Source of the DNA: Clostridia bacterium
GTDB lineage: Bacteria; Bacillota; Clostridia; UBA1212; UBA1255
DNA: 64,000 nt
NCBI GenBank assembly: GCA_017560765.1
Contig: JAFZEI010000028.1
Coordinates: 66,690 to 130,689 of the forward strand
Direction: 5' to 3'
Shown here piece after piece: positions 5,043 through 20,847 of this stretch; position 1 is the stretch's first letter, and each line of letters starts with the position of its first letter. The notes beneath the pieces were generated by a model. That model did not search any database. It worked only from the letters and a program-made list of their open reading frames with translations, and was not told the origin of the DNA. A program made the translations under genes and the position numbers.

Positions 5043-5981
5043 ATGATATTTTCCTGTTTAATAGGTATTTTCTCATTTATACTAATGATTTTATTTGTTA
5101 TTTTTAATTCAGATTGCATACCTGAAACACGCAATGCTCTCTATACTTTTTTAGATTCTGTTTTTCCTACAATGTTTCCCTTTTATGTATTGTCTTCCAT
5201 TCTTACTGCATGCTCCCCTTTTCAAAAAATGCTCCGCCCGTTAAAACCTATATCTCGCTTTTACAAACTGCCCAATGAATCAATTTCGGCAATCCTCTTA
5301 GGTTTACTGTGCGGTTTTCCTATAGGTGCAAAAGTCACCAGTGATTTATACAGTAAAAATTTAATTACGGAAAAAGAGGGCGCTTTACTTGCTTCCTTCA
5401 CAAATAACGCCGGGCCAATTTATACAATTACAATTATAGGAGGCATATTTCTTCAAAATAAAATGTATGGTTTTCTTATATGGATTTGTATAGCTTTATC
5501 CTCCTTAATTACAGGATTAATACTTTGCAAGCTTTGTCTAAATAAAGAAGAAAAGCCTATTGTAAATCACTATAATACCGAAACAAATGTTGACATAACA
5601 AAAGCTATTATGACAGGACTAAATACTGCACTTTACGTTGGTGCCGTTATAATATTCTTTGCTTCTGTAACATCCCTTTTAAAACAAATACCGTTTTTTT
5701 CTGATTCTGTTTATGTTTCCCTTTATTCCTTTTTGGAATTAACAGGCGGTCTAAAGGCAATGACTGCTCATATAACAAATACATTTCCGCAATTACCATC
5801 ATATCTTTATTGTGCTATTATTTCTGCCACAGCAGCATGGTCAGGAATTTGTATACACTTGCAAGTCTGTGGCATATTAAAAGCTTCAGGTATCAGTTTA
5901 AGATATTATCTTATCGGAAAAATACTTTCTTCATTTATATCATTTTTTACAACGATAATATTGTTTGCTGTAATAATATAA
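5043..5981 (+). CDS. Polytopic membrane protein, YlbJ-like sporulation integral membrane protein (nucleoside-recognition/Gate domain)
   Basis: The 312-aa protein has ~8 predicted TM segments, and motif LGLLCGFPIGAKVTSDLY…FTNNAGPIY resembles the YlbJ family. Confidence 0.45.
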   Translation: MIFSCLIGIFSFILMILFVIFNSDCIPETRNALYTFLDSVFPTMFPFYVLSSILTACSPFQKMLRPLKPISRFYKLPNESISAILLGLLCGFPIGAKVTSDLYSKNLITEKEGALLASFTNNAGPIYTITIIGGIFLQNKMYGFLIWICIALSSLITGLILCKLCLNKEEKPIVNHYNTETNVDITKAIMTGLNTALYVGAVIIFFASVTSLLKQIPFFSDSVYVSLYSFLELTGGLKAMTAHITNTFPQLPSYLYCAIISATAAWSGICIHLQVCGILKASGISLRYYLIGKILSSFISFFTTIILFAVII

Positions 5982-6013
5982 AAAGGACACAACCTTTCGA
6001 TTGTGTCCTTTTG
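5980..6013. terminator. Bidirectional rho-independent terminator between convergent genes
   Basis: Stem aggacacaa(5984-5992), loop cctttcga, stem ttgtgtcct(6001-6009), flanked by an A-run upstream and a T-run downstream. Confidence 0.6.
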
Positions 6014-6033: not shown

Positions 6034-7383
6034 TTATACTGTAAGGAGTTCCCAAATTTCGTTACATTTTTGTTCAAGTGCTGCAAAACCGTCTGAGTAG
6101 CTTGCAGAACCGGAAAGATCGTTTCTTAAAATGTTAATAACTCCTTCATCTATTGCCTCAGCAACCTCAATAGGCATACGGCAGTTAACCTGACCAGGTG
6201 TAGATGCTGTATCTGCTTTGTAAACAAATGCATCCCAGTTCTTTGTGCTCCAATTAGGATCATCAGGATACTTCCAAGCATCAAAGCCTTCTTCATCAAC
6301 AGATTTAAGAAGCGGTACTGAACCACCATTTCCTGCATTGAAGGATTTCTGTCCCTCAGGAGCGAAGAAGAATAATGCCAAAGCAGCAGCTGCTGTTACA
6401 TTCTGTGTTCTACTAAATACACCAACACCTGAAGCACCGCATCCAAAAGAAGGATTCTCAAACAAAGGCATATTTATAAGATCCCATTCAACACCCAAGT
6501 TATCATAGTTTTTACCTGCAGACTGAACTGAAGGATATACACAAGTCTTAAATACAGCTTCTTTACCTGCAAAGCCTTCTGCAGTATCGTTAACACCTGT
6601 AATCTTAGCGTAATCTTTCTTAGCTAAATCAAGTGCTTCTTTTACAGCTCTGAGAATCTTACCTTCTTCATCGATAAATGTAATCTTCTTATCTGTTGTG
6701 CTGCACCATGAATTTCTGTATGTATAAGCCTCAAAGAAAGCTGTATACACAGGTGAATAACCAAGGTTCAAGTCAATCGGATAATAATCATCACCATAAA
6801 GCTGCTCACAAAGAGCTTGGAACTCTGCCCATGTCCACTCCGGCTTAACTGATGCACTTGCACCTGCCTCAGTTACAGCTGTCTTGTTGTAAATCAAAGC
6901 CATGTGGTTATAGTCTCTGGGAACGAAATACAAACGTCCGTTAACAAGACCCAATGCATAAATACCACTGTATACATCGCTCAAATCGATATCGAACTTT
7001 TCAACAAAACCGTCAAGAGGAAGCAATGCTTTATCTGTAACTGCATATTTGTATGTATACAACTCTGCAAAATAGAATACATCACCGATATCAGCTGAAG
7101 CAATTCTTGTATCAGATGTAGCAGTGTAATCACGCTCAACCTTTACATCTTTATACTTCTTCTCAAAAGCAGAAATAAATCTCTCTGCTGCCTCCTTAGA
7201 AGCTGAGCTTGTAGCTGCAGGCTCGTATGTGAAAGTGATTTCACCCTCAGCAACACCACTCTTCTCGGCTTCTTCGAGTTGTTCCTGTGATACCATTTGC
7301 GGTTTGCCGCAAGCAACGATAGAAAATGTCATTACAAGAGCAAGCAGAATAACTGCTGCACTTTTGATATACTTTTTCATCAA
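6034..7383 (-). CDS. ABC transporter substrate-binding lipoprotein (family-1 extracellular solute-binding protein, CUT1-type)
   Basis: The 449-aa protein has a lipobox (LVMTFSIVACGKPQ) and the overall SBP_bac_1 pattern. It has its own promoter and terminator. Confidence 0.8.
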   Translation of the reverse strand: MMKKYIKSAAVILLALVMTFSIVACGKPQMVSQEQLEEAEKSGVAEGEITFTYEPAATSSASKEAAERFISAFEKKYKDVKVERDYTATSDTRIASADIGDVFYFAELYTYKYAVTDKALLPLDGFVEKFDIDLSDVYSGIYALGLVNGRLYFVPRDYNHMALIYNKTAVTEAGASASVKPEWTWAEFQALCEQLYGDDYYPIDLNLGYSPVYTAFFEAYTYRNSWCSTTDKKITFIDEEGKILRAVKEALDLAKKDYAKITGVNDTAEGFAGKEAVFKTCVYPSVQSAGKNYDNLGVEWDLINMPLFENPSFGCGASGVGVFSRTQNVTAAAALALFFFAPEGQKSFNAGNGGSVPLLKSVDEEGFDAWKYPDDPNWSTKNWDAFVYKADTASTPGQVNCRMPIEVAEAIDEGVINILRNDLSGSASYSDGFAALEQKCNEIWELLTV

Positions 7384-7552: not shown

Positions 7553-9088
7553 TTACCAATTTGCATTTGCCGCATCTTGAATCGTCTGTAACAATTCATC
7601 AATGTGTGTCATTGTACTGTCTTGAGTATAAGCATCAAATACATCAGCTATTGCATCTTTAACCTCTAAAGACGCATTCCATGACATGAAAGAAGTTAAA
7701 ACTGCAGGATAATCATTTTCTGAATAAAGTGAAAATACTGACGTATTCTTTCCTGACAATGGATATTCTCTCCAGAACTTCATACTGTTTGCTGATACTA
7801 CTGCCGGAACCTTGTAGCCAACATCTCCGGCATACGCTACTGCAGCCTCTTTTACCATTGCATACAATGCAAGGCTTTTTGAAAGCTTAATTGTATTTGC
7901 TATTTCTTTAGCTTCTTCCTCAAGTTCTTCATCGCTTTTATCAAAATCTGTTGTATAATCAGAAGACCTAACAACTTCACGATTAATAACAGCAAAACCA
8001 AGAGTTTTTACACCGATATTCTTATAAACAGTACCATCTTCTGATGCAAATCCCGGAAAATGAGCAAATTCCCAATCAAAAACAACTGCATCAGGATCAT
8101 CCTCTGTATCAACTGCCAAATAATTTTGCCATTTTACAACATCAGAGTGGTCTGCAACTATAATACCGTATTTTGACAAGTCCTCACCACGAACATCTTT
8201 TGTTTGTTTATTATCAACGTATCCTGTTCTTAAGAAATTGTCAGCAAAATACTTAAGTCCTTCAATTACATTAGGATCAGTAAGATTCAATTCTACTGTT
8301 TTGTCTGCAAAAGACACATCATTATATATACTGCCGCCAAAACTCTGTGCAAATGCACCCCAAATAGAATAGTCATTGTAATTCATAAGGATAGGTGTCT
8401 CTACACCACTTTCTCTAAGTGCACCAGCATAAGAAAGCAAGTCATCCCAAGTCCAAGAGTCTGACGGAACGGGGTTTTCTATTCCGGCTGCTTTTAATAA
8501 ATCCAAATTGAGAATTACAACTTGATTTAAATATTCAACAGGACACATATATAAACGACCATCATACATAGAAGCGTCGTATGCAGCCTGCATATATACC
8601 TTTGAAGGATAGAGCTTGCCAAAATTACTGTCAGTAAAATCGGTCACACCATTTGCTTCATTGCTGATATCAACAATCCAGCCTTTTTCAACATATTCAG
8701 GAAGCTTATCTGAACTGATGAGAACTACATCGCCTATATCTCCGCTCTCAATTCTTGAGTCAAGAGTGTTAAAATAATCCTCATAACCAAGTGTAGCGTC
8801 CAACTGAACATCCACACTGGGATATTGAAGTGCAAAAGACTGTGTGAACATAAACAAATCATTATCATTGTCGTTGTTCTCATCTTCGCCATACGGATCC
8901 TCTGCAGTATATTTTGCATTATATGAGGATATTATAATACTGCCTGCAAGATCCTCCGGAACAGGATTTGCCTTACCTGAGCTGCTGTCATCTTTGTCTT
9001 TGTCCTTACTACCGGAGCAACCGATAAAAGATACTGCCACAACAACAGCTAACATACATATTAAAGCAATACGCAATTTGTTAAACAT
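7553..9088 (-). CDS. ABC transporter substrate-binding lipoprotein (long family-1 SBP with acidic linker)
   Basis: The 511-aa protein has lipobox FIGCSGSKDKDKDD. It is the last gene of the long permease operon, with a 12-nt gap to the upstream permease. Confidence 0.75.
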   Translation of the reverse strand: MFNKLRIALICMLAVVVAVSFIGCSGSKDKDKDDSSSGKANPVPEDLAGSIIISSYNAKYTAEDPYGEDENNDNDNDLFMFTQSFALQYPSVDVQLDATLGYEDYFNTLDSRIESGDIGDVVLISSDKLPEYVEKGWIVDISNEANGVTDFTDSNFGKLYPSKVYMQAAYDASMYDGRLYMCPVEYLNQVVILNLDLLKAAGIENPVPSDSWTWDDLLSYAGALRESGVETPILMNYNDYSIWGAFAQSFGGSIYNDVSFADKTVELNLTDPNVIEGLKYFADNFLRTGYVDNKQTKDVRGEDLSKYGIIVADHSDVVKWQNYLAVDTEDDPDAVVFDWEFAHFPGFASEDGTVYKNIGVKTLGFAVINREVVRSSDYTTDFDKSDEELEEEAKEIANTIKLSKSLALYAMVKEAAVAYAGDVGYKVPAVVSANSMKFWREYPLSGKNTSVFSLYSENDYPAVLTSFMSWNASLEVKDAIADVFDAYTQDSTMTHIDELLQTIQDAANANW

Positions 9089-9100
9089 AAAAAACCTCCG

Positions 9101-10069
9101 TTACTCAATAACACCCAGTCGTTCAATACCTGATGCCAGTTTGTTCTGTCCGGCAATATAAACAATAAGTACAGGTATCATAACAAGCAAACATCCTGCA
9201 AAAAGCATTGGTTCGGTCATAGCCTTGTCAAAATCACTTGCTTCACCGGTGTAACCCATAATTTCCGCATAATATGTCTGAATTTTTTCAAGCTTAGGCT
9301 GAAGTGTCATCATATTTTGCTTAAACATATAGGTAGGAGCCTCATAGTTATCATTCCAGTGCCATACAAATGAGAAAATAAATACAATTGAAATGGCAGA
9401 TTTAACCAAGGGCAACATAATTTGAATAAATACTCTAAAAGGTCCTGCTCCGTCTATACGAGCCGCATCATCCATGGCATCCGGAATTCTCTGGAAGAAG
9501 TACATGTAAATCAATGCAAATAAAGCACCTCTTAAGCCAAGTCCAAATATACACGGTACAAGTATTGGTGCATACGTATTTGTTAAACCAAAAGTAGCCC
9601 ACATACCATAGGAAGACAAAATTGTTGTTTGAGGTGGTATCAACAATACCAAAATCAAGAATATAAACAAAAGATTTCTTCCTCTGAATTTAAATCTTCC
9701 TAATGCATATCCGATTATCGCACAGGAAACAGATTGCAATAACGCACTTCCCAAAGACAATATCAAAGAATTCAAGAATGAACGCGGATAAGAAAGACCT
9801 ATCCAAGCATCTACAAAGTTTTGATACTCAAATGACGTTGGAATCCATTCAACTGTTGGATCCATATAATCCTGATAAGACATCATAGATGTTGTCAAAA
9901 TATATATGAAAGGCAACAAAAACAAATATGCAAGTTCTATTAATACATAATACAGGAAAATACGTCCGATGATAAAGGTAATCTTTTTCTTTGCCTTATA
10001 TCCCAAATTTCTATATCTGTCAACAAGTCCACGTATAAAATCAGAAACTCTACCGAAAACCTTTGTCAC
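9101..10069 (-). CDS. Carbohydrate ABC transporter permease (MalG-like), GTG start overlapping the upstream stop (GTGA)
   Basis: The 6 TM segments include an EAA-type loop (IDGAGPFRVFIQIMLPL). The ATG-start ORF to 10138 overlaps the upstream gene by 73 nt. A GTG at 10069 with AGGAGG 8 nt upstream resolves the overlap. Confidence 0.8.
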   Translation of the reverse strand: MTKVFGRVSDFIRGLVDRYRNLGYKAKKKITFIIGRIFLYYVLIELAYLFLLPFIYILTTSMMSYQDYMDPTVEWIPTSFEYQNFVDAWIGLSYPRSFLNSLILSLGSALLQSVSCAIIGYALGRFKFRGRNLLFIFLILVLLIPPQTTILSSYGMWATFGLTNTYAPILVPCIFGLGLRGALFALIYMYFFQRIPDAMDDAARIDGAGPFRVFIQIMLPLVKSAISIVFIFSFVWHWNDNYEAPTYMFKQNMMTLQPKLEKIQTYYAEIMGYTGEASDFDKAMTEPMLFAGCLLVMIPVLIVYIAGQNKLASGIERLGVIE

Positions 10070-10953
10070 TTTAGCCACCTCCTTGTAAATAAGATGAATA
10101 TGAGAATTGTAACAAGAGCGAGAAGCATATACATCCAACTCAATGCAGATGCCATACCATACTCTGTTCCTTTTTCAGTCATTTCATTCATCATACTCAT
10201 TACCGGGTTATTATACTTTGTAAATGAGTCAACAAGAGCATATATACAATTCAAAATAACAAAAGGTGAAATATAAGGAAGTGTTACATGCCAGAAAGAT
10301 TCCCATGCTGTAGCTCCGTCAATTTCAACTACCTCATAAAGAATATCAGGAACGCTCTGCAAGGCAGCAAGGAATATCAAAATCTCAACACTACTGCTCC
10401 ACATGATATCTCCGATATACTGGGTAATTTTTCCTCCGAATGAAGAGAAAATACCTGAAGAAGAATTTACAAGAGAACCAAATACGCTGATACTTCCTAC
10501 TCCTTCGCCAAAGAGATAGCTCATTATTACTCCCGCAAGAATAACGGGGATAAAGAATATTACTCTAAAATAAACTCTTCCTGCAAACTTTTGTTTAAGA
10601 AGCACTGCAACAAACAATGCAAAGAAAACTATTATCGGAACTTGCCAAAGAGAATCTAAGAAGGAATTCAGCATAACCTCACCGACTTCCGGATCTTGAA
10701 CAATATCCACATAGTTCTGAATACCATTCCACTTACTCTGTCCTTCAAAACCATAAAGGTCTGTAAGCTGAGTAATATAAAAACTGATTCTGATTGAAAG
10801 CACTAACGGAACCATAATAAAGATTATGAAACCGATTACCCATGGTAATGAGAATCCCCATCCCTCAAGAGACTTTCTTCTTTCAAAGGAAATAACACTG
10901 CCTAAAGTACGCTTATGCGCTAATTTCTTTTTTGCTTTTATCTGTTTAGCCAT
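10066..10953 (-). CDS. Sugar ABC transporter permease (MalF-like)
   Basis: The 295-aa protein has 6 TM segments and an ABC-TM1 EAA-like motif (IDGATAWESFWHVTLPY). Confidence 0.85.
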   Translation of the reverse strand: MAKQIKAKKKLAHKRTLGSVISFERRKSLEGWGFSLPWVIGFIIFIMVPLVLSIRISFYITQLTDLYGFEGQSKWNGIQNYVDIVQDPEVGEVMLNSFLDSLWQVPIIVFFALFVAVLLKQKFAGRVYFRVIFFIPVILAGVIMSYLFGEGVGSISVFGSLVNSSSGIFSSFGGKITQYIGDIMWSSSVEILIFLAALQSVPDILYEVVEIDGATAWESFWHVTLPYISPFVILNCIYALVDSFTKYNNPVMSMMNEMTEKGTEYGMASALSWMYMLLALVTILIFILFTRRWLK

Positions 10954-10956
10954 GCA

Positions 10957-13446
10957 TTACTTCCCTCCCTTCTCTGAAATTTTATAGCTTTCTGCATTAA
11001 TTGTAATCTTTTCGCCATTAACATCCGTAACTGTTTGTTCAGCTGCCTCATAGTTTACATAAACTCTTGTACCGTCTGAATACTCTGTACAGAAAATATC
11101 AAGGCCGTCAACTACTCTAAAATGGTCTGAAATATCAAGTTTTGCAAAAGGTTTAACTGCCTCAGCAACAGCCTTATAACGCTCTACAATTTCATTTTTT
11201 AATGTTGAATATTCTGAACGATACAAACCATTGTAATAGGTATATCTCAATTCACTTGTCTTTTCTTCTGTAATCTCATAAGACATGAGAGAACCGTATT
11301 CTATAGAACGAAGAGTAAAGAATGCTTCATCGTCTTGATTGTTTACAGGAGCTGAATAATAGTCAACCAATCCATGATATACAATCTGCATAAAAGGAAT
11401 CTCTTCATCCAAAACAAGGTGAGATGACTTTTCAATAGGCATATCAACGATTATGTCTGCATACGGAATTGCGTATGAGTTTCCGCTATATACTGCAACA
11501 TCATCAAAGTTAGCACCGTATTTCTGAAGCCACTTTACATATAAGCTGATTGTCTGTACTCTAAACAAAGGATTTTCTTCGTTATAATCAGAAAATACAT
11601 TGTCACCCAACTGTTGTAAATCAACATTATTAGCACCAAAATCTTTGAGTCTTTCAATCAAATCATCAATAAGCTCTTGATCGAAATATTTAGGTCCCAT
11701 AACATAGAAGTCAGTTTTTCTGAACACACCTGATGTATCCTTTATATAGTAGTTAAGGTAAAAAGTATTCGCCTGTTTAACAATTGAGTTTCTAAATGTT
11801 GCACCATTAGTAGGGCTACCGTAAACAATTAAAAGGTTGTTATCAAGAGCAAGCGTAATATCTTTTCCTTTTGCCCAGCTGTACAAGTCTTTTAAATCAC
11901 TCTTTCCGCCGTAAGAACCATCAACCTTAAGCTTTGATGTGGCATTCCAGAAGTAACCGCCTTTCTGCCAGCCTAAAAGTGAAAGACGCAAATCAGAAGC
12001 ACCCATTGAATCAAGCTCATTATAAATAGAACGAACGTCCTCAAAATCAGTCATGACCTTAACTTGATCAAGGACACCACCTACTTCATTTTGAGCTCCC
12101 ATAAATAATTTTAAATTAAGTACTGGTGAATCACCTGAGTTTCCTGTAGCAAGTTCTACACCATAGCGTTCCTTCCATTGAGCAAGAAGATTAGAACGAA
12201 CTTCTTTTGCAACATCAACATAAGAATATTCTTCTGTTTCTGATGTTGTAATCTTAGTTCTTTGCTCAACATCACCTAATTGCTTATCCTTTACAACCAT
12301 GTCATACTGTGTACCACCGTTTGAAATCTGAAGTTTATAGAAATCACGGTAATTGTATTGGAAATAAATAGCATAGAAAGGAAGGTTTCTAATGCCGGGA
12401 TTTGAAATTTTAAGCTCAGCATTTGAATCTCCTTCTTTTATGAAAGAAGTCATTATAGAGTTTGCTGCGCTGTTAATATTCTCTCCATCATCATCAATAT
12501 TCTCAACGATACCATATGCGCCAATAGAAAGAAGCAAGTTGTTATAATCCGGTGCATCGCTTACATCGAATGTCAAATCATTACCATAAAGCTTCTTTGA
12601 ATACTCGTTGTAGTTTGTGATTCTTGCTGTGTCAAATTTTGTAAGAGCACCCGTACCATCCGGTGTTACAAAGTAACCCTCTTGACCGCTACGATGAGCA
12701 CCCATATAAGGAAGAACACTTAAAGACACCAAGAGAGGTCTTCTGTCTTGTTGCTCATTTTCAAGACCTTTTCTTTCGATTATACCATTTACAGGAATTC
12801 TGTAAACGAGCTCATCATTTTCGATAGTAATCTCAACAGAAAACTCTAATTCAAGTTCCTTCATCTCATAACGAAGACGAACACCGTTTTCTATGTAATA
12901 GGCAGTTTTAACATGTGCCATTTGATTTACACCAAGTGTGAATCCGCCGTCCATACCTGATTTTGTATAACCTACAAAAACAGGCGAAGTAATAAATTGA
13001 CCTGTTTCTGAATTTTCAGCATACAAATCCAAATCAGAAGTTTCGCCTTCTTCAAGTGTTGTTTCATGAATAGGCTCAGGATATGAGCGGAAAATCTCAC
13101 CCGTAACCAAATCCTCTAATATGAAAAGATTATCTCTGTTTGAGAAGCTTAGTTTCAATTTGTCATTCTCTGCTACAACTGTCATACCTTGATCAGTAAG
13201 CATTACACCGTTTATTCCCTTTGATTTATCAGGCGCAGCAACTTCTCTGATACCCTCTACACCATCTTTAGGGAAATTAACCTCATTTCCGTCGCCTGTG
13301 GCCACTGCAACGATGATAAAAGCAAGAATACAAACAAATACAAGAGCTACGCATCCCTTGATTATTTTTACTCTTTTTTCTCGTCTTGCTACTTGAAACA
13401 AAGGATCATTATTTTGTTTTTCTTCAACATTTTTCTTCTTAAACAA
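10957..13446 (-). CDS. Large membrane-anchored extracytoplasmic protein of unknown function (DUF5696-like by size and context; possible glycoside-hydrolase-like fold)
   Basis: The 829-aa protein has a cytoplasmic N-terminus, one TM helix (CVALVFVCILAFIIVAVA), and a large extracellular body. No recognisable catalytic motif. It is embedded between the permease pairs. Confidence 0.5.
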   Translation of the reverse strand: MFKKKNVEEKQNNDPLFQVARREKRVKIIKGCVALVFVCILAFIIVAVATGDGNEVNFPKDGVEGIREVAAPDKSKGINGVMLTDQGMTVVAENDKLKLSFSNRDNLFILEDLVTGEIFRSYPEPIHETTLEEGETSDLDLYAENSETGQFITSPVFVGYTKSGMDGGFTLGVNQMAHVKTAYYIENGVRLRYEMKELELEFSVEITIENDELVYRIPVNGIIERKGLENEQQDRRPLLVSLSVLPYMGAHRSGQEGYFVTPDGTGALTKFDTARITNYNEYSKKLYGNDLTFDVSDAPDYNNLLLSIGAYGIVENIDDDGENINSAANSIMTSFIKEGDSNAELKISNPGIRNLPFYAIYFQYNYRDFYKLQISNGGTQYDMVVKDKQLGDVEQRTKITTSETEEYSYVDVAKEVRSNLLAQWKERYGVELATGNSGDSPVLNLKLFMGAQNEVGGVLDQVKVMTDFEDVRSIYNELDSMGASDLRLSLLGWQKGGYFWNATSKLKVDGSYGGKSDLKDLYSWAKGKDITLALDNNLLIVYGSPTNGATFRNSIVKQANTFYLNYYIKDTSGVFRKTDFYVMGPKYFDQELIDDLIERLKDFGANNVDLQQLGDNVFSDYNEENPLFRVQTISLYVKWLQKYGANFDDVAVYSGNSYAIPYADIIVDMPIEKSSHLVLDEEIPFMQIVYHGLVDYYSAPVNNQDDEAFFTLRSIEYGSLMSYEITEEKTSELRYTYYNGLYRSEYSTLKNEIVERYKAVAEAVKPFAKLDISDHFRVVDGLDIFCTEYSDGTRVYVNYEAAEQTVTDVNGEKITINAESYKISEKGGK

Positions 13447-15535
13447 GATAAATCATCTCCTTACCAAATTGAATAATAAAGTCAAACATTTGGGCTGCAA
13501 GACCGTATACTATAAGGAACAGTAACACTACCGCAACTACGCCGACAGCGGTCAGCATAAATACAACAAATGCCTTTACAGGATGGAAACCATGTATACC
13601 TTTTATACAGAAGTACACAAGAGCAATCGTGTAAATCGTAAGTAATGTGCCAAGAATTCCGTAAATACCGGACTCATTTAATGTAAGCAAATGTGTAAGT
13701 GCTGCATACGGTAATGAAAGAAGCATCAAAGGACCATGACAGTATGCACCGCCTATAACAACGTCTCTGAATCTACCTTCACCGTACATAATCGTTGTAA
13801 CACCATAATTTACTATACAAACAACACCCCAAGGTAAAAACGCAAAGAAGAAAGTCAATACCGGTTCTATTGTATCGAGTGATGCTCCACCTCTGTAAAT
13901 AAAGCTTGTAGCGTATGCAGAAATAACAGAAACAATCGCATACAAAATCATTATAGCTATCATATCTAAATATGAACCCTGGTTTTCATATCTGATTTCT
14001 TCAAAGCCGTCTACAGGATGACGCATTATGTTAGTAACGCGACCAAAGAAATGCTTAATTGCAGTAAAGAAATTTTTCCTTTCCACAGGCACTCCGTATT
14101 TCTTTCTTCTGAATTTCTTAATAGTAACAACGGCAACCCAAAGAGCTAACAACACAACAATTGTAATTACTATCCATGAGAAATAATCTCTTAAGAAATC
14201 CGCTCTCATTTCTTCATAAGCTTCTGATGCATATGTTGCATTTTCAGCTTCATAGAAGAAATCGTAAGCTTCACTGTTAAATTCTTCTCTTAATTTAATG
14301 TTACCTATATTAACAAGTGCGAGAGAATAATAATTACTCTTCTCAACAACTTTCTCCCATTCTTTAAGGGATTCCTCGTACTTACCATCGCTGTAATATG
14401 CGTTTGCAACATGTACTAGATTTGCAAATTCTGTAGGTTTAAATACTGTTATATTACCTGTTGTTTTATTAAGTACATAAACTCTTCCATTTCCGTCAGT
14501 TTCTATACTAACCGGATACGAAAGCTGACCGTAACCATTACCCTTTGTGCCAAAAGCAAATAAGTTATTGCCTCTTTCATCATACTCATAAATTCTGCCA
14601 TACTGTCTGTCTACAATAAGCATGTTATTGTATTTATCAACTGTAACATCACAGAATATCTGATTTATTGTTGAAAAGCTTGACATGATACTGTTGTCAC
14701 GGAAATCATACGCTCCATAAAGTACATCCGAACCGCCAATGTTGATTTTACGAACTTGCGGAGGAGTTTCCGTTGTTGTTGTAGCATACATATAACCGTC
14801 TGCACTGGAGTAAATGTTAGTAAATGTATAAGGAAGTGTAACGACTGAACCCTTTCTGTCCTCACGGCTCCAAAGAAGCTTTGCTAATGATTCCCAAAAT
14901 GAGAGGTTAACTTTATTCGTACCATAATAACTTATAAACTCACCATTTGAGCTAAGCTGCATAATACCGTTACTGTCACCTTTGTTAGTTACATACATAA
15001 AACCTCTTGAATCTTTTGTTATCTTCTCCGGCTGATAGGAGAAATCCTTTGAAAGAAGGTCACTTTCAGGTTTTGAGTACGAATAACGAAGGTTTCCGTA
15101 TTTTGTAAATTCAACAATACGACCGTTTCCTGAGTCTGCAACAATAATTGCTCCGTCATCAGGGTCTACATATACACCTGTAGGATCTTTTAAAGCAGAC
15201 AAATCACCATCTACATATGTTCCGTCACTGCTGATTTCGAAAAGGAATTTATAGTCAGCACCATATACAACAATTCTGTTGTTACCTGTGTCTGCAACAT
15301 AAATCTTTCCTTCATCATCAATAAACATATCCTCCGGATTTTTGAGCTTTCCTGTTTCTGTTGAAAGAAAGTCGATAACCGTACTTGTTTCATAAGCTGC
15401 AGGAATAGGTTTTGCGGTCTTCTCTTTTTCCTGAATATAGTAGTTTGCATAAGGTGTTCTTGCACTTGCAGTTATACCTGTTGAAAGTACTAAGGAAGTT
15501 AATATAAGAAGACATATAAATTTTTTAAACTTCAT
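13439..15535 (-). CDS. NHL-repeat beta-propeller fused to a C-terminal Yip1-domain membrane module (YIP1 family protein)
   Basis: Signal peptide, then about five NHL-like blades (IYVADTGNNRIVVY, IIVADSGNGRIVEF, MLIVDRQYGRIYEY, VYVLNKTTGNITVF), a TM segment, then 5 further TMs typical of Yip1. Confidence 0.7.
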   Translation of the reverse strand: MKFKKFICLLILTSLVLSTGITASARTPYANYYIQEKEKTAKPIPAAYETSTVIDFLSTETGKLKNPEDMFIDDEGKIYVADTGNNRIVVYGADYKFLFEISSDGTYVDGDLSALKDPTGVYVDPDDGAIIVADSGNGRIVEFTKYGNLRYSYSKPESDLLSKDFSYQPEKITKDSRGFMYVTNKGDSNGIMQLSSNGEFISYYGTNKVNLSFWESLAKLLWSREDRKGSVVTLPYTFTNIYSSADGYMYATTTTETPPQVRKINIGGSDVLYGAYDFRDNSIMSSFSTINQIFCDVTVDKYNNMLIVDRQYGRIYEYDERGNNLFAFGTKGNGYGQLSYPVSIETDGNGRVYVLNKTTGNITVFKPTEFANLVHVANAYYSDGKYEESLKEWEKVVEKSNYYSLALVNIGNIKLREEFNSEAYDFFYEAENATYASEAYEEMRADFLRDYFSWIVITIVVLLALWVAVVTIKKFRRKKYGVPVERKNFFTAIKHFFGRVTNIMRHPVDGFEEIRYENQGSYLDMIAIMILYAIVSVISAYATSFIYRGGASLDTIEPVLTFFFAFLPWGVVCIVNYGVTTIMYGEGRFRDVVIGGAYCHGPLMLLSLPYAALTHLLTLNESGIYGILGTLLTIYTIALVYFCIKGIHGFHPVKAFVVFMLTAVGVVAVVLLFLIVYGLAAQMFDFIIQFGKEMIYLV

Positions 15536-15551: not shown

Positions 15552-16421
15552 TTATTTAATTCCTGAGTGTGCCATTGTGTCTTGAACTCTGCTCTGGTTA
15601 ATGATGAAGATTATGATACTCGGAAGAGTCATAATTAAACCAGATGCAGCTCCGGCACCTGTTCTGGCAATACCGCCGCCAATAGTTGACATGAAAAATC
15701 CTAATGTTCTTAACTGCTCTTTGTAAATATACGTTGTAGATGTACCTGTCTCGCCCCAAATACCACCAAACGTAAGAATAATAACAGTTGCTTGAGCGTT
15801 TTTAAGAAGTGGGATTGCTATCTTTTGATAAAGTTGCCATTCAGAAGCACCGTCAATCTTACCGGCTTCGAAAATATCATTCGGAACCGTATCAAGGAAC
15901 TGCTTCATAAGGAACAAACACGTTGTATTGGCAAGAGCCGGTATTATATAAACCAAATAGGTATTATCAATTCCAATTGATGTAATAATCAAATATGCCG
16001 GAATACCTGCCGCTGATGCAATAAACATCATTGATGTTGTTACAAGGCTCATCAAACCTTTTTTGCCTGGGAACTTGTGTTTTGACAAAGGATAAGATGT
16101 CATTGTCAAAAGCCATACCAAACAGAAAATATAACATACTGTTATCAAAATTGTATTAAAGAGATACCTTGTAAACGGTACTGCACTATTAGCTGTTATA
16201 GCCGTCAAATCCTTAAAGTTTTGAATCGTCGGATTCTTAACAAAGAATGTAGGCGGATAGAGGAACAACTCCTCCGGTGGCTTAAATGCTGTACACACAA
16301 GGTATATCAACGGAAGCAAAGATACTGCGCCGGCTAAAGTAAGGAATACTAATATGACGACTTTACCGTGATCTTTACGTTTTTTAGCTTTCTTTAAATA
16401 ATCAACGTCTACCTGAAACAT
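15552..16421 (-). CDS. Carbohydrate ABC transporter permease (MalG-like)
   Basis: The 289-aa protein has 6 TM segments and an EAA loop (IDGASEWQLYQKIAIPLL). Confidence 0.85.
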   Translation of the reverse strand: MFQVDVDYLKKAKKRKDHGKVVILVFLTLAGAVSLLPLIYLVCTAFKPPEELFLYPPTFFVKNPTIQNFKDLTAITANSAVPFTRYLFNTILITVCYIFCLVWLLTMTSYPLSKHKFPGKKGLMSLVTTSMMFIASAAGIPAYLIITSIGIDNTYLVYIIPALANTTCLFLMKQFLDTVPNDIFEAGKIDGASEWQLYQKIAIPLLKNAQATVIILTFGGIWGETGTSTTYIYKEQLRTLGFFMSTIGGGIARTGAGAASGLIMTLPSIIIFIINQSRVQDTMAHSGIK

Positions 16422-16425
16422 ATTA

Positions 16426-17403
16426 TCACTCCTTCTCGCCTAAAACTTTAAATGCAACACGACCGATACCGAGAATCATAACAGAAAGAACCACGGCAAT
16501 AGCAGATGCGTAACCTACCTCAAATCGTGTACCTGAATAGTCACTAAGATGCAACATAATTGTAAGAGCAGCGTCCTCAGGGCTCGGGTGTCCGGCAATC
16601 GTTCCGCCTACAGAGAATGAACCTGTAATTGTAATAACAGCGGCAAACAACAATTGCGGCATTGTTTGAGGAACGTCTACATACAAAAGCTTTTGAAATC
16701 TTGACGTAACACCGTCAACCGAAGCTGCATCGTAAAGTTCTCTGTCAACACCACGGAAACCGGCAACGAATGAAAGGAACTGTGTACTCAAACTTGACCA
16801 CAACGCAACAATGATAACGACAGGCATAATATAATTAACATCCTGTAGCCATTGAATAGGTTCATAAATTAAACCTAAATTTAAAAGCAAGGAGTTAAGG
16901 TAACCTGTACTATCGTTTGAAAACATTACCGCCCAAACAACAGCCATGGCAACACCGCTTGTAAGAGCAGGTGCATAGAACGCCAAAACGTAAATAGGTC
17001 TTACCTTATCCGGAACCTGGTTAATAAACCACGCAAAGAAATATGACGCAATATAAGAAACAGGTCCAACAATTACTGCGTATGTCAAAGTATTTGTAAA
17101 TGCCTTTAAGAAAAGAGCATCATCAACAAACAAATAAACATAGTTTTCAAGTCCGTTAAAAACCGGATCTTCGAAAATGTTCCAATATGTAAAACTGAGA
17201 CCTAATGATGCCAACAAAGGTAACAACGAAAAAGTAATAAAGATAATGAAGAATGGAGCTACCATCGCATAAGACATCTTATGTGTCCACATTTCGTGGA
17301 GTGTGTATCCAAGTCTCTTCTCTACATTGAAAAATCTCTTTTTCGGTGCAACGGGCTTATTTGCTTCAGCTTTTTTTAATTTTTTCTCTTCTTTCTTACT
17401 CAC
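16426..17403 (-). CDS. Sugar ABC transporter permease (MalF-like)
   Basis: The 325-aa protein has 6 TM segments and an EAA loop (VDGVTSRFQKLLYVDVP). Confidence 0.85.
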   Translation of the reverse strand: MSKKEEKKLKKAEANKPVAPKKRFFNVEKRLGYTLHEMWTHKMSYAMVAPFFIIFITFSLLPLLASLGLSFTYWNIFEDPVFNGLENYVYLFVDDALFLKAFTNTLTYAVIVGPVSYIASYFFAWFINQVPDKVRPIYVLAFYAPALTSGVAMAVVWAVMFSNDSTGYLNSLLLNLGLIYEPIQWLQDVNYIMPVVIIVALWSSLSTQFLSFVAGFRGVDRELYDAASVDGVTSRFQKLLYVDVPQTMPQLLFAAVITITGSFSVGGTIAGHPSPEDAALTIMLHLSDYSGTRFEVGYASAIAVVLSVMILGIGRVAFKVLGEKE

Positions 17404-17418
17404 AAATTATCCCTCCAA

Positions 17419-20400
17419 TCACTTTGCAGCAGCACGATCAATATAAATCGCACCATCTTTGGGGATGCCAAACTCTGCTTGCTTACGACGCATCTCTTTA
17501 TTGATTTCTTTTACAGCATCTTCAAGAGCAATTCTACCGCTAAGTCCCTGCATAACAGTTTGGTTCAACGCTGTAACCAAATATCTTGATGTATAGTAAT
17601 CACCCATAGTTCCCGGCGTTTCATCCAAATGCTCCCATTGAGCATTAATAACATCAAGCTCCTCCTGTGAATAAGGAAGTGATTGAAGTGCTACCTTGTT
17701 TGCAGGATTCCAACGAGAAGCAACGCCAAATGTAGCCTCTACCTCTCTACCGTATTCTGCCTGAACAGCATTAGAAAGCCACCATTGAATAAACGTCCAT
17801 GACTCAGCATAATGTTGTTTTTCTTCGTTGTCCTGTTTTATGATGATACAACAAGAAGCAACACCACTTATGGATCTGTCAATAAACTCTTCGCCTGTCT
17901 CCTCATCAACATGAGCCTTACCGGGAAGTAATGTCATTGCCCACTTACCATTAAGCTCAGGAGCGGAATAATAAAGTTGTTGATAGAATGTTAAGTCAGC
18001 AATACCTATAGGCATCTCACCTGACTTAAATCTCATGTAGAAGTTTGCCGCATATACGAAATTATACTGGAGATATAAGTTTGAATATTCCATAAAAGCA
18101 TCGTATGCGAGCTCAGTATTCAATGCTGATTGCATTGCATCAGGAGTGTAGAAATCTCCACCATACTGATAAAGCATAGGCGTGTAACCTCCTACTCCAT
18201 AGTTAAAACAGAAGTCATAACCTGAGTTTGTCAAAGTAGGAAGAATATCATATACCTCATCCCAAGTCTCCGGAGGCTCTACTCCTAAAGTATCAAAAAT
18301 ATCAGTTCTGTAGAACAAAGCGTTCCAGTTTTGAGTCTCAGGGAAAGCGTAGTAGTCACCCAAATAGTTAAAAGGAACAAACGCCTCATCATGGTATGAT
18401 TGTATACCATACGGATTATCTGTATTTTTCCAGAGCTCATCAAATGTCATTACATCTATGCCATTATATTCGTCAACGCATACCTCATTAAGAGGGGCAA
18501 GAGCACCTCTGATGGCAAATTCAAAAACAGAACCTTTACCAATTGAAATAGCGAGGTCAGGAGCAGTTCCTGCAACATAACGTGGCATAATCAATCCCTC
18601 AGAAGATCCGGCTACCATGTTGATGTTTACTTTGATACCATACTCTGGTGTAAACTGCTCACTTACCATATTACGCATAATATCTACGTGTTCACGACCT
18701 CTGGCAACATAAACCTCAATCTCCGGCATACCTTCTGTATCGAGACCCTCACGAGCACCGGCGTTCTCATATTTTTCATTGTCAAATGAATTTAAAAATC
18801 TTACAGCACCAACATATAAGCTCTGCCAAGCATTGCTTCTTGCATCAGGATAATCATAATCCTTGGGAGCTGCAACCATGTAGTCAATAGCAATAGGTTG
18901 TTCCTTAATAGAAACCATTGTATTACTCAAACCGGTCTGTGCATTTGTAATATCGTTAAGAGAAATAGCAACTTTTTCTAAATCTTCATCGAAATCCTCA
19001 AACAATTCGCTGGCTACTTTAACAGCAGAAGCATAAGAAGTAACCTTACCGCCATTTAAGTAAATGATATCTTCATAACACTTGTTGAAAACATCAATGT
19101 ATGTCTTAATATCCTCTTGAATTGTAGGGATATAAAGCTGTAAATCATAGTCTCTGTTTTTATCTATTGTATATCCACCTGATGATGTACGCGCCGAAGC
19201 AGTAATTTTAACAATTTTATTTACAAGTGTTGATATTGAGTCCATAGATTCTTCTATTCTCTGGAGAGAATGACGAAGCGGACCAACTTTATTAACTAAA
19301 GAAATTGTATGATCGCCTTCTTCTAAGTAAAAGAGATATGGATTTTGATCTGCATCAAGCAAAGAGACAGCCGTCCAACCATCTGCATAAGGGAAACAAT
19401 ATTCTTCCATTTCTGCAAAAGGAATAGAACCGTCAATCTTTATCTCTTTAAAAGATGAAACGTATGTAAATTGAGATTTATAACGGAATCCCAATTCATA
19501 CCAACCTGTCTCAGGTACATTAAATGTCCATTCTACCTTATCTCCGCCTACAGACCATCTGTCACCACCGAATATATTAAACAGAGTAGCTTTATAAGAC
19601 GGAAGTGTTGCGTTTGAAGTTGTATAATAGTCATTGTCTGTTTCCATTCTGACACTTATACTTGTTGTCCAATCCGGAACCTCCATTTCCTTCTTTACAG
19701 ATGTTCCTGTATAAATGGCAGAATCTGAAAAACCTTTTTGTGTTTTATATTCTGCATAGGAAGGATTTACAACAGGAGCAATGAATTTAATATTGCGTAC
19801 CGCGCCGCTCTCTTTTGAGAACGTAAGAGCGATTTTGTGTGATCCTTTTTGCAAATAGAAACGATACGGATTTCTGTAAAGTCCGTCAGGGTTTGACATA
19901 ACAGTATTTTGCCAATCATAAATTTCTTGTGATTTCGGACGAATTTGATTGCCTACAACATCTTTATTTGAAGCATAATCATAATCATAAAAACCGTACA
20001 TTCTCTTTAATGCCATATTGGAAGCATCTTCAAAAGGAAGTTTACCATCTATAGTGAAATTCACCAGCATATCCGTATCACGGCCTGCAAGCATAAGATA
20101 CTCAATATAAAGTGAATATAAGCCGGCTTCATCAACTGTAATATCAAATTCCAGCTTTGTACCTTCATTGGAAACATAGAGCGCTCCTGCAATGTCTTCT
20201 AAAGAAAGAGACTTTTCGGAATTATCACTTTTATCAGTATACTTTACTCCGTTTTTATACTCTTCAATCTCATTAAGAAGAAAAACTTCTGACTCAGTAA
20301 GTTCCTTGTATTGAGAAAGGAAATCTCTAAGCCTTGAATCGGTAAGGTAGTCTTTAAGACCTTCTGCTGTATAGTCTTTTTCATCTACCCCTGATACACC

Positions 20401-20736
20401 ATATTTTTCCTTTAACGCAGCAATCTTGTTAGCCGTATCTGTATGCGACTTTGCAATAAGAGCCGCTACATCCACACTAATAGGATCTCCGGAATAATAC
20501 TTGTACCCCTTGGACGCATACTTCGTCAGAACCTTGCCGTATTCCAAAAAGCTGTTATCCAAACGTTCTTCATTTGCAACGAACGGATCAAAATCCATCT
20601 CGTCATAGTTCTCATAATTGTACTGAACTGTTTCAGCATCTCTGTTGCCATAAACGACAAAGACAACTGCAGCCACAAGAACAAGTGCGACTATGACAAT
20701 CGTTAAACGAATCATCTTCTTTTTTTTCTTAGTCAT
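17419..20736 (-). CDS. Giant membrane-anchored extracellular protein: N-terminal TM anchor, two internally duplicated beta-sandwich (CBM-like) modules, and a C-terminal family-1 solute-binding-protein domain
   Basis: The 1105-aa protein starts with TM helix LTIVIVALVLVAAVVFVVY. A tandem duplication is visible (GLYSLYIEY…IDGKLPFED…NPYRFYLQKGSHKIAL versus GWYELGFRY…IDGSIPFAE…NPYLFYLEEGDHTISL). The C-terminal ~450 aa resemble an ABC SBP. Confidence 0.7.
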   Translation of the reverse strand: MTKKKKKMIRLTIVIVALVLVAAVVFVVYGNRDAETVQYNYENYDEMDFDPFVANEERLDNSFLEYGKVLTKYASKGYKYYSGDPISVDVAALIAKSHTDTANKIAALKEKYGVSGVDEKDYTAEGLKDYLTDSRLRDFLSQYKELTESEVFLLNEIEEYKNGVKYTDKSDNSEKSLSLEDIAGALYVSNEGTKLEFDITVDEAGLYSLYIEYLMLAGRDTDMLVNFTIDGKLPFEDASNMALKRMYGFYDYDYASNKDVVGNQIRPKSQEIYDWQNTVMSNPDGLYRNPYRFYLQKGSHKIALTFSKESGAVRNIKFIAPVVNPSYAEYKTQKGFSDSAIYTGTSVKKEMEVPDWTTSISVRMETDNDYYTTSNATLPSYKATLFNIFGGDRWSVGGDKVEWTFNVPETGWYELGFRYKSQFTYVSSFKEIKIDGSIPFAEMEEYCFPYADGWTAVSLLDADQNPYLFYLEEGDHTISLVNKVGPLRHSLQRIEESMDSISTLVNKIVKITASARTSSGGYTIDKNRDYDLQLYIPTIQEDIKTYIDVFNKCYEDIIYLNGGKVTSYASAVKVASELFEDFDEDLEKVAISLNDITNAQTGLSNTMVSIKEQPIAIDYMVAAPKDYDYPDARSNAWQSLYVGAVRFLNSFDNEKYENAGAREGLDTEGMPEIEVYVARGREHVDIMRNMVSEQFTPEYGIKVNINMVAGSSEGLIMPRYVAGTAPDLAISIGKGSVFEFAIRGALAPLNEVCVDEYNGIDVMTFDELWKNTDNPYGIQSYHDEAFVPFNYLGDYYAFPETQNWNALFYRTDIFDTLGVEPPETWDEVYDILPTLTNSGYDFCFNYGVGGYTPMLYQYGGDFYTPDAMQSALNTELAYDAFMEYSNLYLQYNFVYAANFYMRFKSGEMPIGIADLTFYQQLYYSAPELNGKWAMTLLPGKAHVDEETGEEFIDRSISGVASCCIIIKQDNEEKQHYAESWTFIQWWLSNAVQAEYGREVEATFGVASRWNPANKVALQSLPYSQEELDVINAQWEHLDETPGTMGDYYTSRYLVTALNQTVMQGLSGRIALEDAVKEINKEMRRKQAEFGIPKDGAIYIDRAAAK

Positions 20737-20818: not shown

Positions 20819-20847
20819 ATTATATATATTTCGTGCAACTGTGTCAA
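20819..20847 (-). promoter_or_regulatory. Consensus sigma-A promoter driving the 8-gene ABC/YIP1 operon
   Basis: On the minus strand: TTGACA(20847-20842), a 17-nt spacer, then TATAAT(20824-20819). An ~85-nt leader ends in RBS GGAAGG 8 nt before the ATG at 20736. Confidence 0.55.

Follow-up and report, generated by a model that had tools for sequence, protein, structure and literature searches.

A DUF5696 protein with a predicted GH129-like ectodomain in a conserved operon with two ABC permease pairs

The 64-kb window, by which we mean the whole stretch of DNA analyzed here, carries among housekeeping genes a nine-gene operon that is bounded by a sigma-70 consensus promoter and a strong terminator, and whose genes overlap or nearly abut (all features located below are on the minus strand). 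The candidate promoter, found by a consensus scan (TTGACA-17-TATAAT, 12/12 consensus positions; 20819..20847), lies 83 nt upstream of gene 1 (17419..20736). The 1105-aa product of gene 1 has an N-terminal transmembrane (TM) anchor (residues 11-29) and a helical region; then come two modules of beta-sandwich type, at 164-320 and at 347-483, of which the latter resembles CBM35, a stretch of long helices (485-611) and a CUT1 solute-binding domain of the MalE type (approximately 615-1090). Two ABC permease genes (BPD_transp_1) come next, gene 2 (16426..17403; 325 aa, 6 TM-like segments) and gene 3 (15552..16421; 289 aa), and then gene 4 (13439..15535), whose 698-aa product has a signal peptide, an extracellular NHL beta-propeller, a TPR region (374-430) and a 5-TM Yip1 domain (454-675). 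Gene 5 (10957..13446), the subject of this report, encodes a DUF5696 protein of 829 aa whose ectodomain has three domains and is GH129-like, as judged from its reading frame, Pfam, homologues, an AF2 model and hhalign. A second pair of ABC permeases is encoded by gene 6 (10066..10953; 295 aa) and gene 7 (9101..10138), which, from the TTG start listed, would share 73 nt with gene 6; the real start is therefore probably further downstream, and the orthologue is 324 aa long. The last two genes encode CUT1 solute-binding lipoproteins: gene 8 (7553..9088; 511 aa, lipobox FIGC) and, after a 169-nt gap, gene 9 (6034..7383; 449 aa, lipobox IVAC). A terminator-like hairpin (5981..6012), with a 14-bp stem and a T-rich tail (5 T within the 8-nt scan window), lies 22 nt past gene 9.

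With four BPD_transp_1 (MalF/MalG-type) permease genes and three family-1 solute-binding protein (SBP) domains, the context is that of CUT1 importers. The operon has no dedicated ATPase gene, and the sole ABC ATPase across the 64-kb window is FtsE, encoded beside FtsX. CUT1 systems of Firmicutes use a shared MsmX/MsmK-type ATPase; an ATPase encoded elsewhere, and shared with other systems, would serve the importers here. The PDB neighbors of the SBP domains of genes 1, 8 and 9 are generic CUT1 sugar binders of low identity, including binders of beta-1,2-gluco-, arabino- and isomalto-oligosaccharides, and this comparison points to no particular substrate for any of the three.

Gene 5 is tightly packed in the operon, as an initial annotation had noted: its start overlaps the stop of gene 4 by 8 nt, and gene 6 starts 3 nt past its stop codon. 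The same annotation placed it between two permease pairs, which is right at the level of the operon, but its immediate upstream neighbor is the NHL-TPR-Yip1 gene, with the pair beyond. The frame reported there is a real one, of 829 uninterrupted codons, which opens with TTG and is preceded, 8 nt upstream, by a GGAG ribosome-binding site; gene callers placed the same start in full-length homologues (99% to approximately 21% identity). A basic tail (residues 1-30, nt 13357-13446; 10 K/R versus 4 D/E) precedes a single TM helix (residues 31-49, GCVALVFVCILAFIIVAVA; 13300..13356), also as first described, and an N-terminal hydrophobic segment is present in 189 of 204 full-length DUF5696 members. 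We agree that the N-terminus has no lipobox. By its sequence, the helix would act either as a signal anchor or as an uncleaved or cleavable signal; since it ends AVA-TG, cleavage by signal peptidase I between these two groups, instead of permanent anchoring, is conceivable.

The protein had been regarded as an orphan without recognizable motif, a view that the database searches overturn. It matches Pfam PF18952 (DUF5696) with 435.1 bits (E=5.8e-130; gathering score 25.6 bits) over residues 184-821, that is, profile positions 6-612 of 612. A word-indexed search retrieved 63 homologues (99-21% identity), and a profile search 6,417 clusters of relatives at 50% identity (E<=1e-3). DUF5696 is the protein's only Pfam match at E<=10, and NCBIfam gives none. 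On this sequence evidence gene 5 belongs to a catalogued, very large and unstudied family: the literature searched, for DUF5696/PF18952 and for Yip1/NHL/ABC combinations, yielded no paper, and no experiment or biochemical data on any DUF5696 protein. Some DUF5696 proteins reach 1,200-2,300 aa, with no recognizable CBM or other Pfam domain in the extra length.

The AF2 model of gene 5 (pLDDT 86, pTM 0.87) comprises an N-terminal beta-sandwich domain (residues 87-402; 12241..13188), a (beta/alpha)8 barrel without helix alpha5 (443-763; 11158..12120) and a C-terminal beta-sandwich (772-824; 10975..11133). This predicted succession of beta-sandwich, (beta/alpha)8 barrel and beta-sandwich is the three-domain fold of GH129, the family founded by NagBb, an alpha-N-acetylgalactosaminidase of Bifidobacterium bifidum (PDB 5WZN). 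The other close counterpart is DagB (ZgGH129, ZGAL_3152; PDB 5OPQ, 8RZK), an exo-alpha-1,3-(3,6-anhydro)-D-galactosidase of Zobellia galactanivorans. Against PDB sequences, the DUF5696 profile found DagB best (5opq; E of approximately 8e-7 for 5opq/8rzg) and 5wzn with E=1e-3. By hhalign, it matched a DagB group (13 DagB orthologues from a scan of genome contigs) with 99.5% probability (E=4e-22) and a NagBb group (from a metagenome scan) with 95% (E=3e-8). With the Pfam DUF5696 model itself, NagBb reaches 50.9 bits and DagB 40.2, both above the cut-off of 25.6; NagBb scores lower, 23.5 bits, on PF11308 (Glyco_hydro_129).

The initial guess of a TIM-barrel ectodomain resembling glycoside hydrolases (GHs) thus agrees with the predicted fold and with the hhalign probabilities. 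The two peptides quoted for it, LSLLGWQKGGYFWN (487-500) and IPFMQIVYHGLVDYYSAP (683-700), both lie inside the predicted barrel and correspond to motifs common with GH129, namely 'GW' after beta2 and 'P-x-x-x-[IL]-V-Y-H'. The family is not uncatalogued, and to that extent not new: Pfam has it as DUF5696, whose model captures NagBb and DagB as well. The similarity exists at the profile level only: gene 5 has no match to PF11308 at E<=10, nor to NagBb in a pairwise phmmer comparison. No match to PF12905 (GH101) appeared even at E<=10, and a 94-aa ZgGH129 fragment used as query in a homologous-protein search found nothing; 6ypc, retrieved by phmmer of gene 5 against PDB sequences, was set aside as a chance match (E=0.4). 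Based on the model and the profiles, the ectodomain most likely belongs, as a divergent member, to the GH129/GH101 glycosidase superfamily. Its structure resembles GH101 (EngBF 2ZXQ, SpGH101 5A55) much less than GH129, and GH36 and GH31 are more distant still.

Compared with NagBb (approximately 13% identity), gene 5 has in common the 'GW' after beta2, D535/D371, R629/R451, the 'VYH' histidine H691/H520 and H775/H597, the last also kept in DUF5696 and in DagB (H630). Since residues 85-829 align against the 634 of NagBb, the ectodomain is some 110 residues longer; part of the excess is inserted between beta3 and alpha3. NagBb lacks a signal peptide and acts in the cytosol (PMC7232152), whereas the gene 5 protein is predicted to be membrane-anchored and to face outward. 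DagB (14-16% identity) belongs to a carrageenan PUL of the outer membrane of a marine Bacteroidota, whereas gene 5 lies in an ABC-importer operon of a Gram-positive, Clostridia-type genome. DagB retains just the Asp of the NagBb catalytic pair, requires four carboxylates for activity (D202, D486, E517 and E531), and is a precedent for moved catalytic residues, among them an Asp that comes from the N-domain of the other monomer (PMC5698469).

The initial annotation had made its guess depend on a conserved fold and on active-site-like residues; the fold is conserved, and approximately 11 polar residues are near-invariant (conserved at least 85-98% in 215 diverse DUF5696 members). These include four Asp and one Glu, D263, D290, D535 and D620 being among the set. 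The N-domain contributes the near-invariant motifs P262-D263-G264-x-G266 and Y287-G288-x-D290, and the conserved barrel residues are G492/W493, D535 (at the end of beta3), D620, R629, N656, S674, H691, N702 and E716. According to the secondary structure of the model, some 17 of the 26 residues conserved in the barrel are placed at the C-terminal end of a strand or in a loop leading from strand to helix, and most of them, polar or not, would face the C-terminal side of the barrel, the usual catalytic face. The beta4-alpha4 loop (residues 613-623, LGDNVFSDYNE; 11578..11610) holds both D615 and D620. D615, in the slot aligned with the GH129 nucleophile (NagBb D435, DagB D486), is variable across the family, whereas D620, in the S-D-[FY]-[ND]-E loop after beta4, is 93% conserved throughout DUF5696.

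The positions expected from GH129 are largely replaced. The DagB-required carboxylates D202, D486, E517 and E531 align with T273, D615, Y653 and V667, so that at most one of the four is exactly matched, with D272 adjoining T273 and D668 adjoining V667. The acid/base E478 of NagBb aligns with G655/N656 (G 87% and N 92% conserved in the family), with no acidic residue within 653-658. The GH129 motif 'VYH-D/E' reads 'VYH-G' in DUF5696, the Gly being 97% conserved, and gene 5 lacks the NagBb residues H320 and D322, both of which are altered in the quadruple mutant 5wzq. Going by these alignments, if gene 5 is an enzyme, its catalytic center is different from the canonical GH129 Asp/Glu pair, and the best candidates for catalysis would be the near-invariant carboxylates D620, D535 and D263/D290. 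With the expected carboxylates replaced and others near-invariant, either the catalytic residues may have been relocated, or a glycosidase fold may have been turned into a binding subunit.

Beyond the window, the order large SBP-type or unannotated protein, permease, permease, NHL-Yip1, DUF5696, permease, permease was found complete in six independent loci, down to approximately 20-25% identity, among them those of Paenibacillus cellulosilyticus and of a Caldicellulosiruptoraceae genome; a seventh locus, at a contig end, retains the DUF5696/permease/permease half. GH10+GH43, GH16 or GH20 genes adjoin the cassette in some loci, and its order stays identical beside different GH families or beside none. 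In known glycan-utilization loci of Gram-positive bacteria, a glycosidase at the surface supplies a CUT1 ABC importer, which draws on a shared ATPase of the MsmX/MsmK type. Such loci have in common with the operon lipoprotein SBPs, MalF/MalG-type permease pairs, a surface-anchored GH-fold protein encoded inside the operon and the lack of an ATPase gene in it. Unlike them, the cassette has two permease pairs, combines one SBP with CBM-like modules and a TM anchor in a single fusion, always includes an NHL-TPR-Yip1 membrane protein, and keeps its gene order invariant across distant lineages. No paper describing this DUF5696/NHL-Yip1/ABC cassette was found in the literature searched.

Our working model is that gene 5 encodes a subunit of a dual ABC importer that processes glycans at the cell surface, and we give a probability of roughly 0.55 to its being a membrane-held, GH129-like, glycan-binding and probably glycan-cleaving surface protein that serves two CUT1 importers. 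The protein would be held at the cell surface by its one N-terminal helix, with the ectodomain outward, and would bind, and probably cleave, a glycan captured at the surface. Likely partners in capture would be the membrane-anchored CBM35-like/SBP fusion of gene 1 and the NHL-propeller/Yip1 protein of gene 4. The cleavage products would pass to the two CUT1-type importers of the same operon, both powered by the ATPase encoded elsewhere. We infer the glycan nature of the substrate, its hydrolysis, the roles of individual residues and the physical coupling to the transporters.

A different and rather unlikely account is that the GH129-like ectodomain has lost hydrolysis and is now a non-catalytic, glycan-binding or scaffolding subunit that, with NHL-Yip1, holds the glycan chain or organizes both importers into a surface complex. 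All three carboxylate positions expected of GH129/GH13-type barrels (the nucleophile after beta4, the acid/base after beta5 and the Asp/Glu after 'VYH') are non-acidic or variable across the family, and the propeller of gene 4 is similar to the PknD sensor and TRIM NHL, which are binding domains and not enzymes. The rigid gene order at such low identities, together with the overlap of start and stop between genes 4 and 5, suggests stoichiometric co-assembly, and a cassette that stays unchanged beside varied GH families or none, and that in the window sits among housekeeping genes, would also suit a generic transporter accessory. Yet a near-invariant polar set that persists in over 200 diverse members is seen more typically in catalysts, or in highly specific ligand sites, than in scaffolds. 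Within the superfamily the acid/base residue is known to change place, DagB being the precedent (PMC5698469), and since the alignment around beta4 may be off by a few residues, D620 could stand where the nucleophile is expected.

That gene 5 is instead a canonical GH129-type retaining alpha-glycosidase seems improbable. D615 would be the nucleophile and, as in DagB, a nearby carboxylate (D668, E672 or the N-domain D272) the acid/base. An ungapped hhalign segment pairs D615-F618-Y621-E623-R629 with D486-F489-Y492-E494-R500 of DagB; D615 also falls within one residue of NagBb D435, in a register that may be shifted by a few residues. The alignment places D272 beside DagB D201/D202 and D664 opposite DagB D528, and Asp 615 is retained in most members of the approximately 830-aa subfamily. 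However, seven members of that subfamily have Asn at 615 (P0006, P0016, P0017, P0018, P0037, P0042 and P0046), and Asn occurs even in relatives of 82% (P0006), 67% and 62% identity, the wider family having mostly Ser, Thr or Asn (S71/D45/T43/N32 in this column). When hhalign was repeated with a larger family profile, the register around beta4 changed, and a NagBb-versus-DagB control misplaced the published D435/D486 equivalence by two residues; because of this disagreement and of the error in the control, we claim neither D615 nor D620 as the nucleophile. Furthermore, the positions of NagBb E478 and DagB E517 are without an acidic residue. A chance reading frame or decayed pseudogene, in favor of which the non-ATG (TTG) start is the sole point, has a negligible probability, being contradicted by the 829 uninterrupted codons with their ribosome-binding site, full-length homologues from 99% down to approximately 21% identity, the Pfam match and the confident structure prediction.

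A bolder and tentative reading, which we consider rather unlikely, is that DUF5696 proteins are not conventional Asp/Glu glycosidases but a repurposed GH129 fold, and that they are the extracellular hallmark of a glycan-uptake machine, widespread among Gram-positive bacteria and as yet undescribed. Its parts would be the CBM-SBP fusion, NHL-Yip1, the protein with the GH129 fold and both ABC permease pairs, each complete. Repurposing would mean either a new mechanism based on D620, D535, D263 and D290, or non-hydrolytic handling that couples the capture of long glycans to the two importers.

The tie between DUF5696 and GH129/GH101, which rests on structure prediction, profile comparison and the capture of NagBb and DagB by the family's own Pfam model, turns a family of unknown function into a testable candidate carbohydrate-active family. 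The replacement of catalytic residues and the rigidity of the cassette are of interest to specialists of CAZymes and of transport; were gene 5 an ordinary exo-glycosidase, the gain would be smaller, one more GH129-like subfamily. The presence of the cassette in cultured Paenibacillus, in a named Caldicellulosiruptoraceae genome and in uncultured Clostridia makes genetics and biochemistry feasible. Cohnella, where the fused binding protein was the only part of the cassette seen, probably carries it as well.

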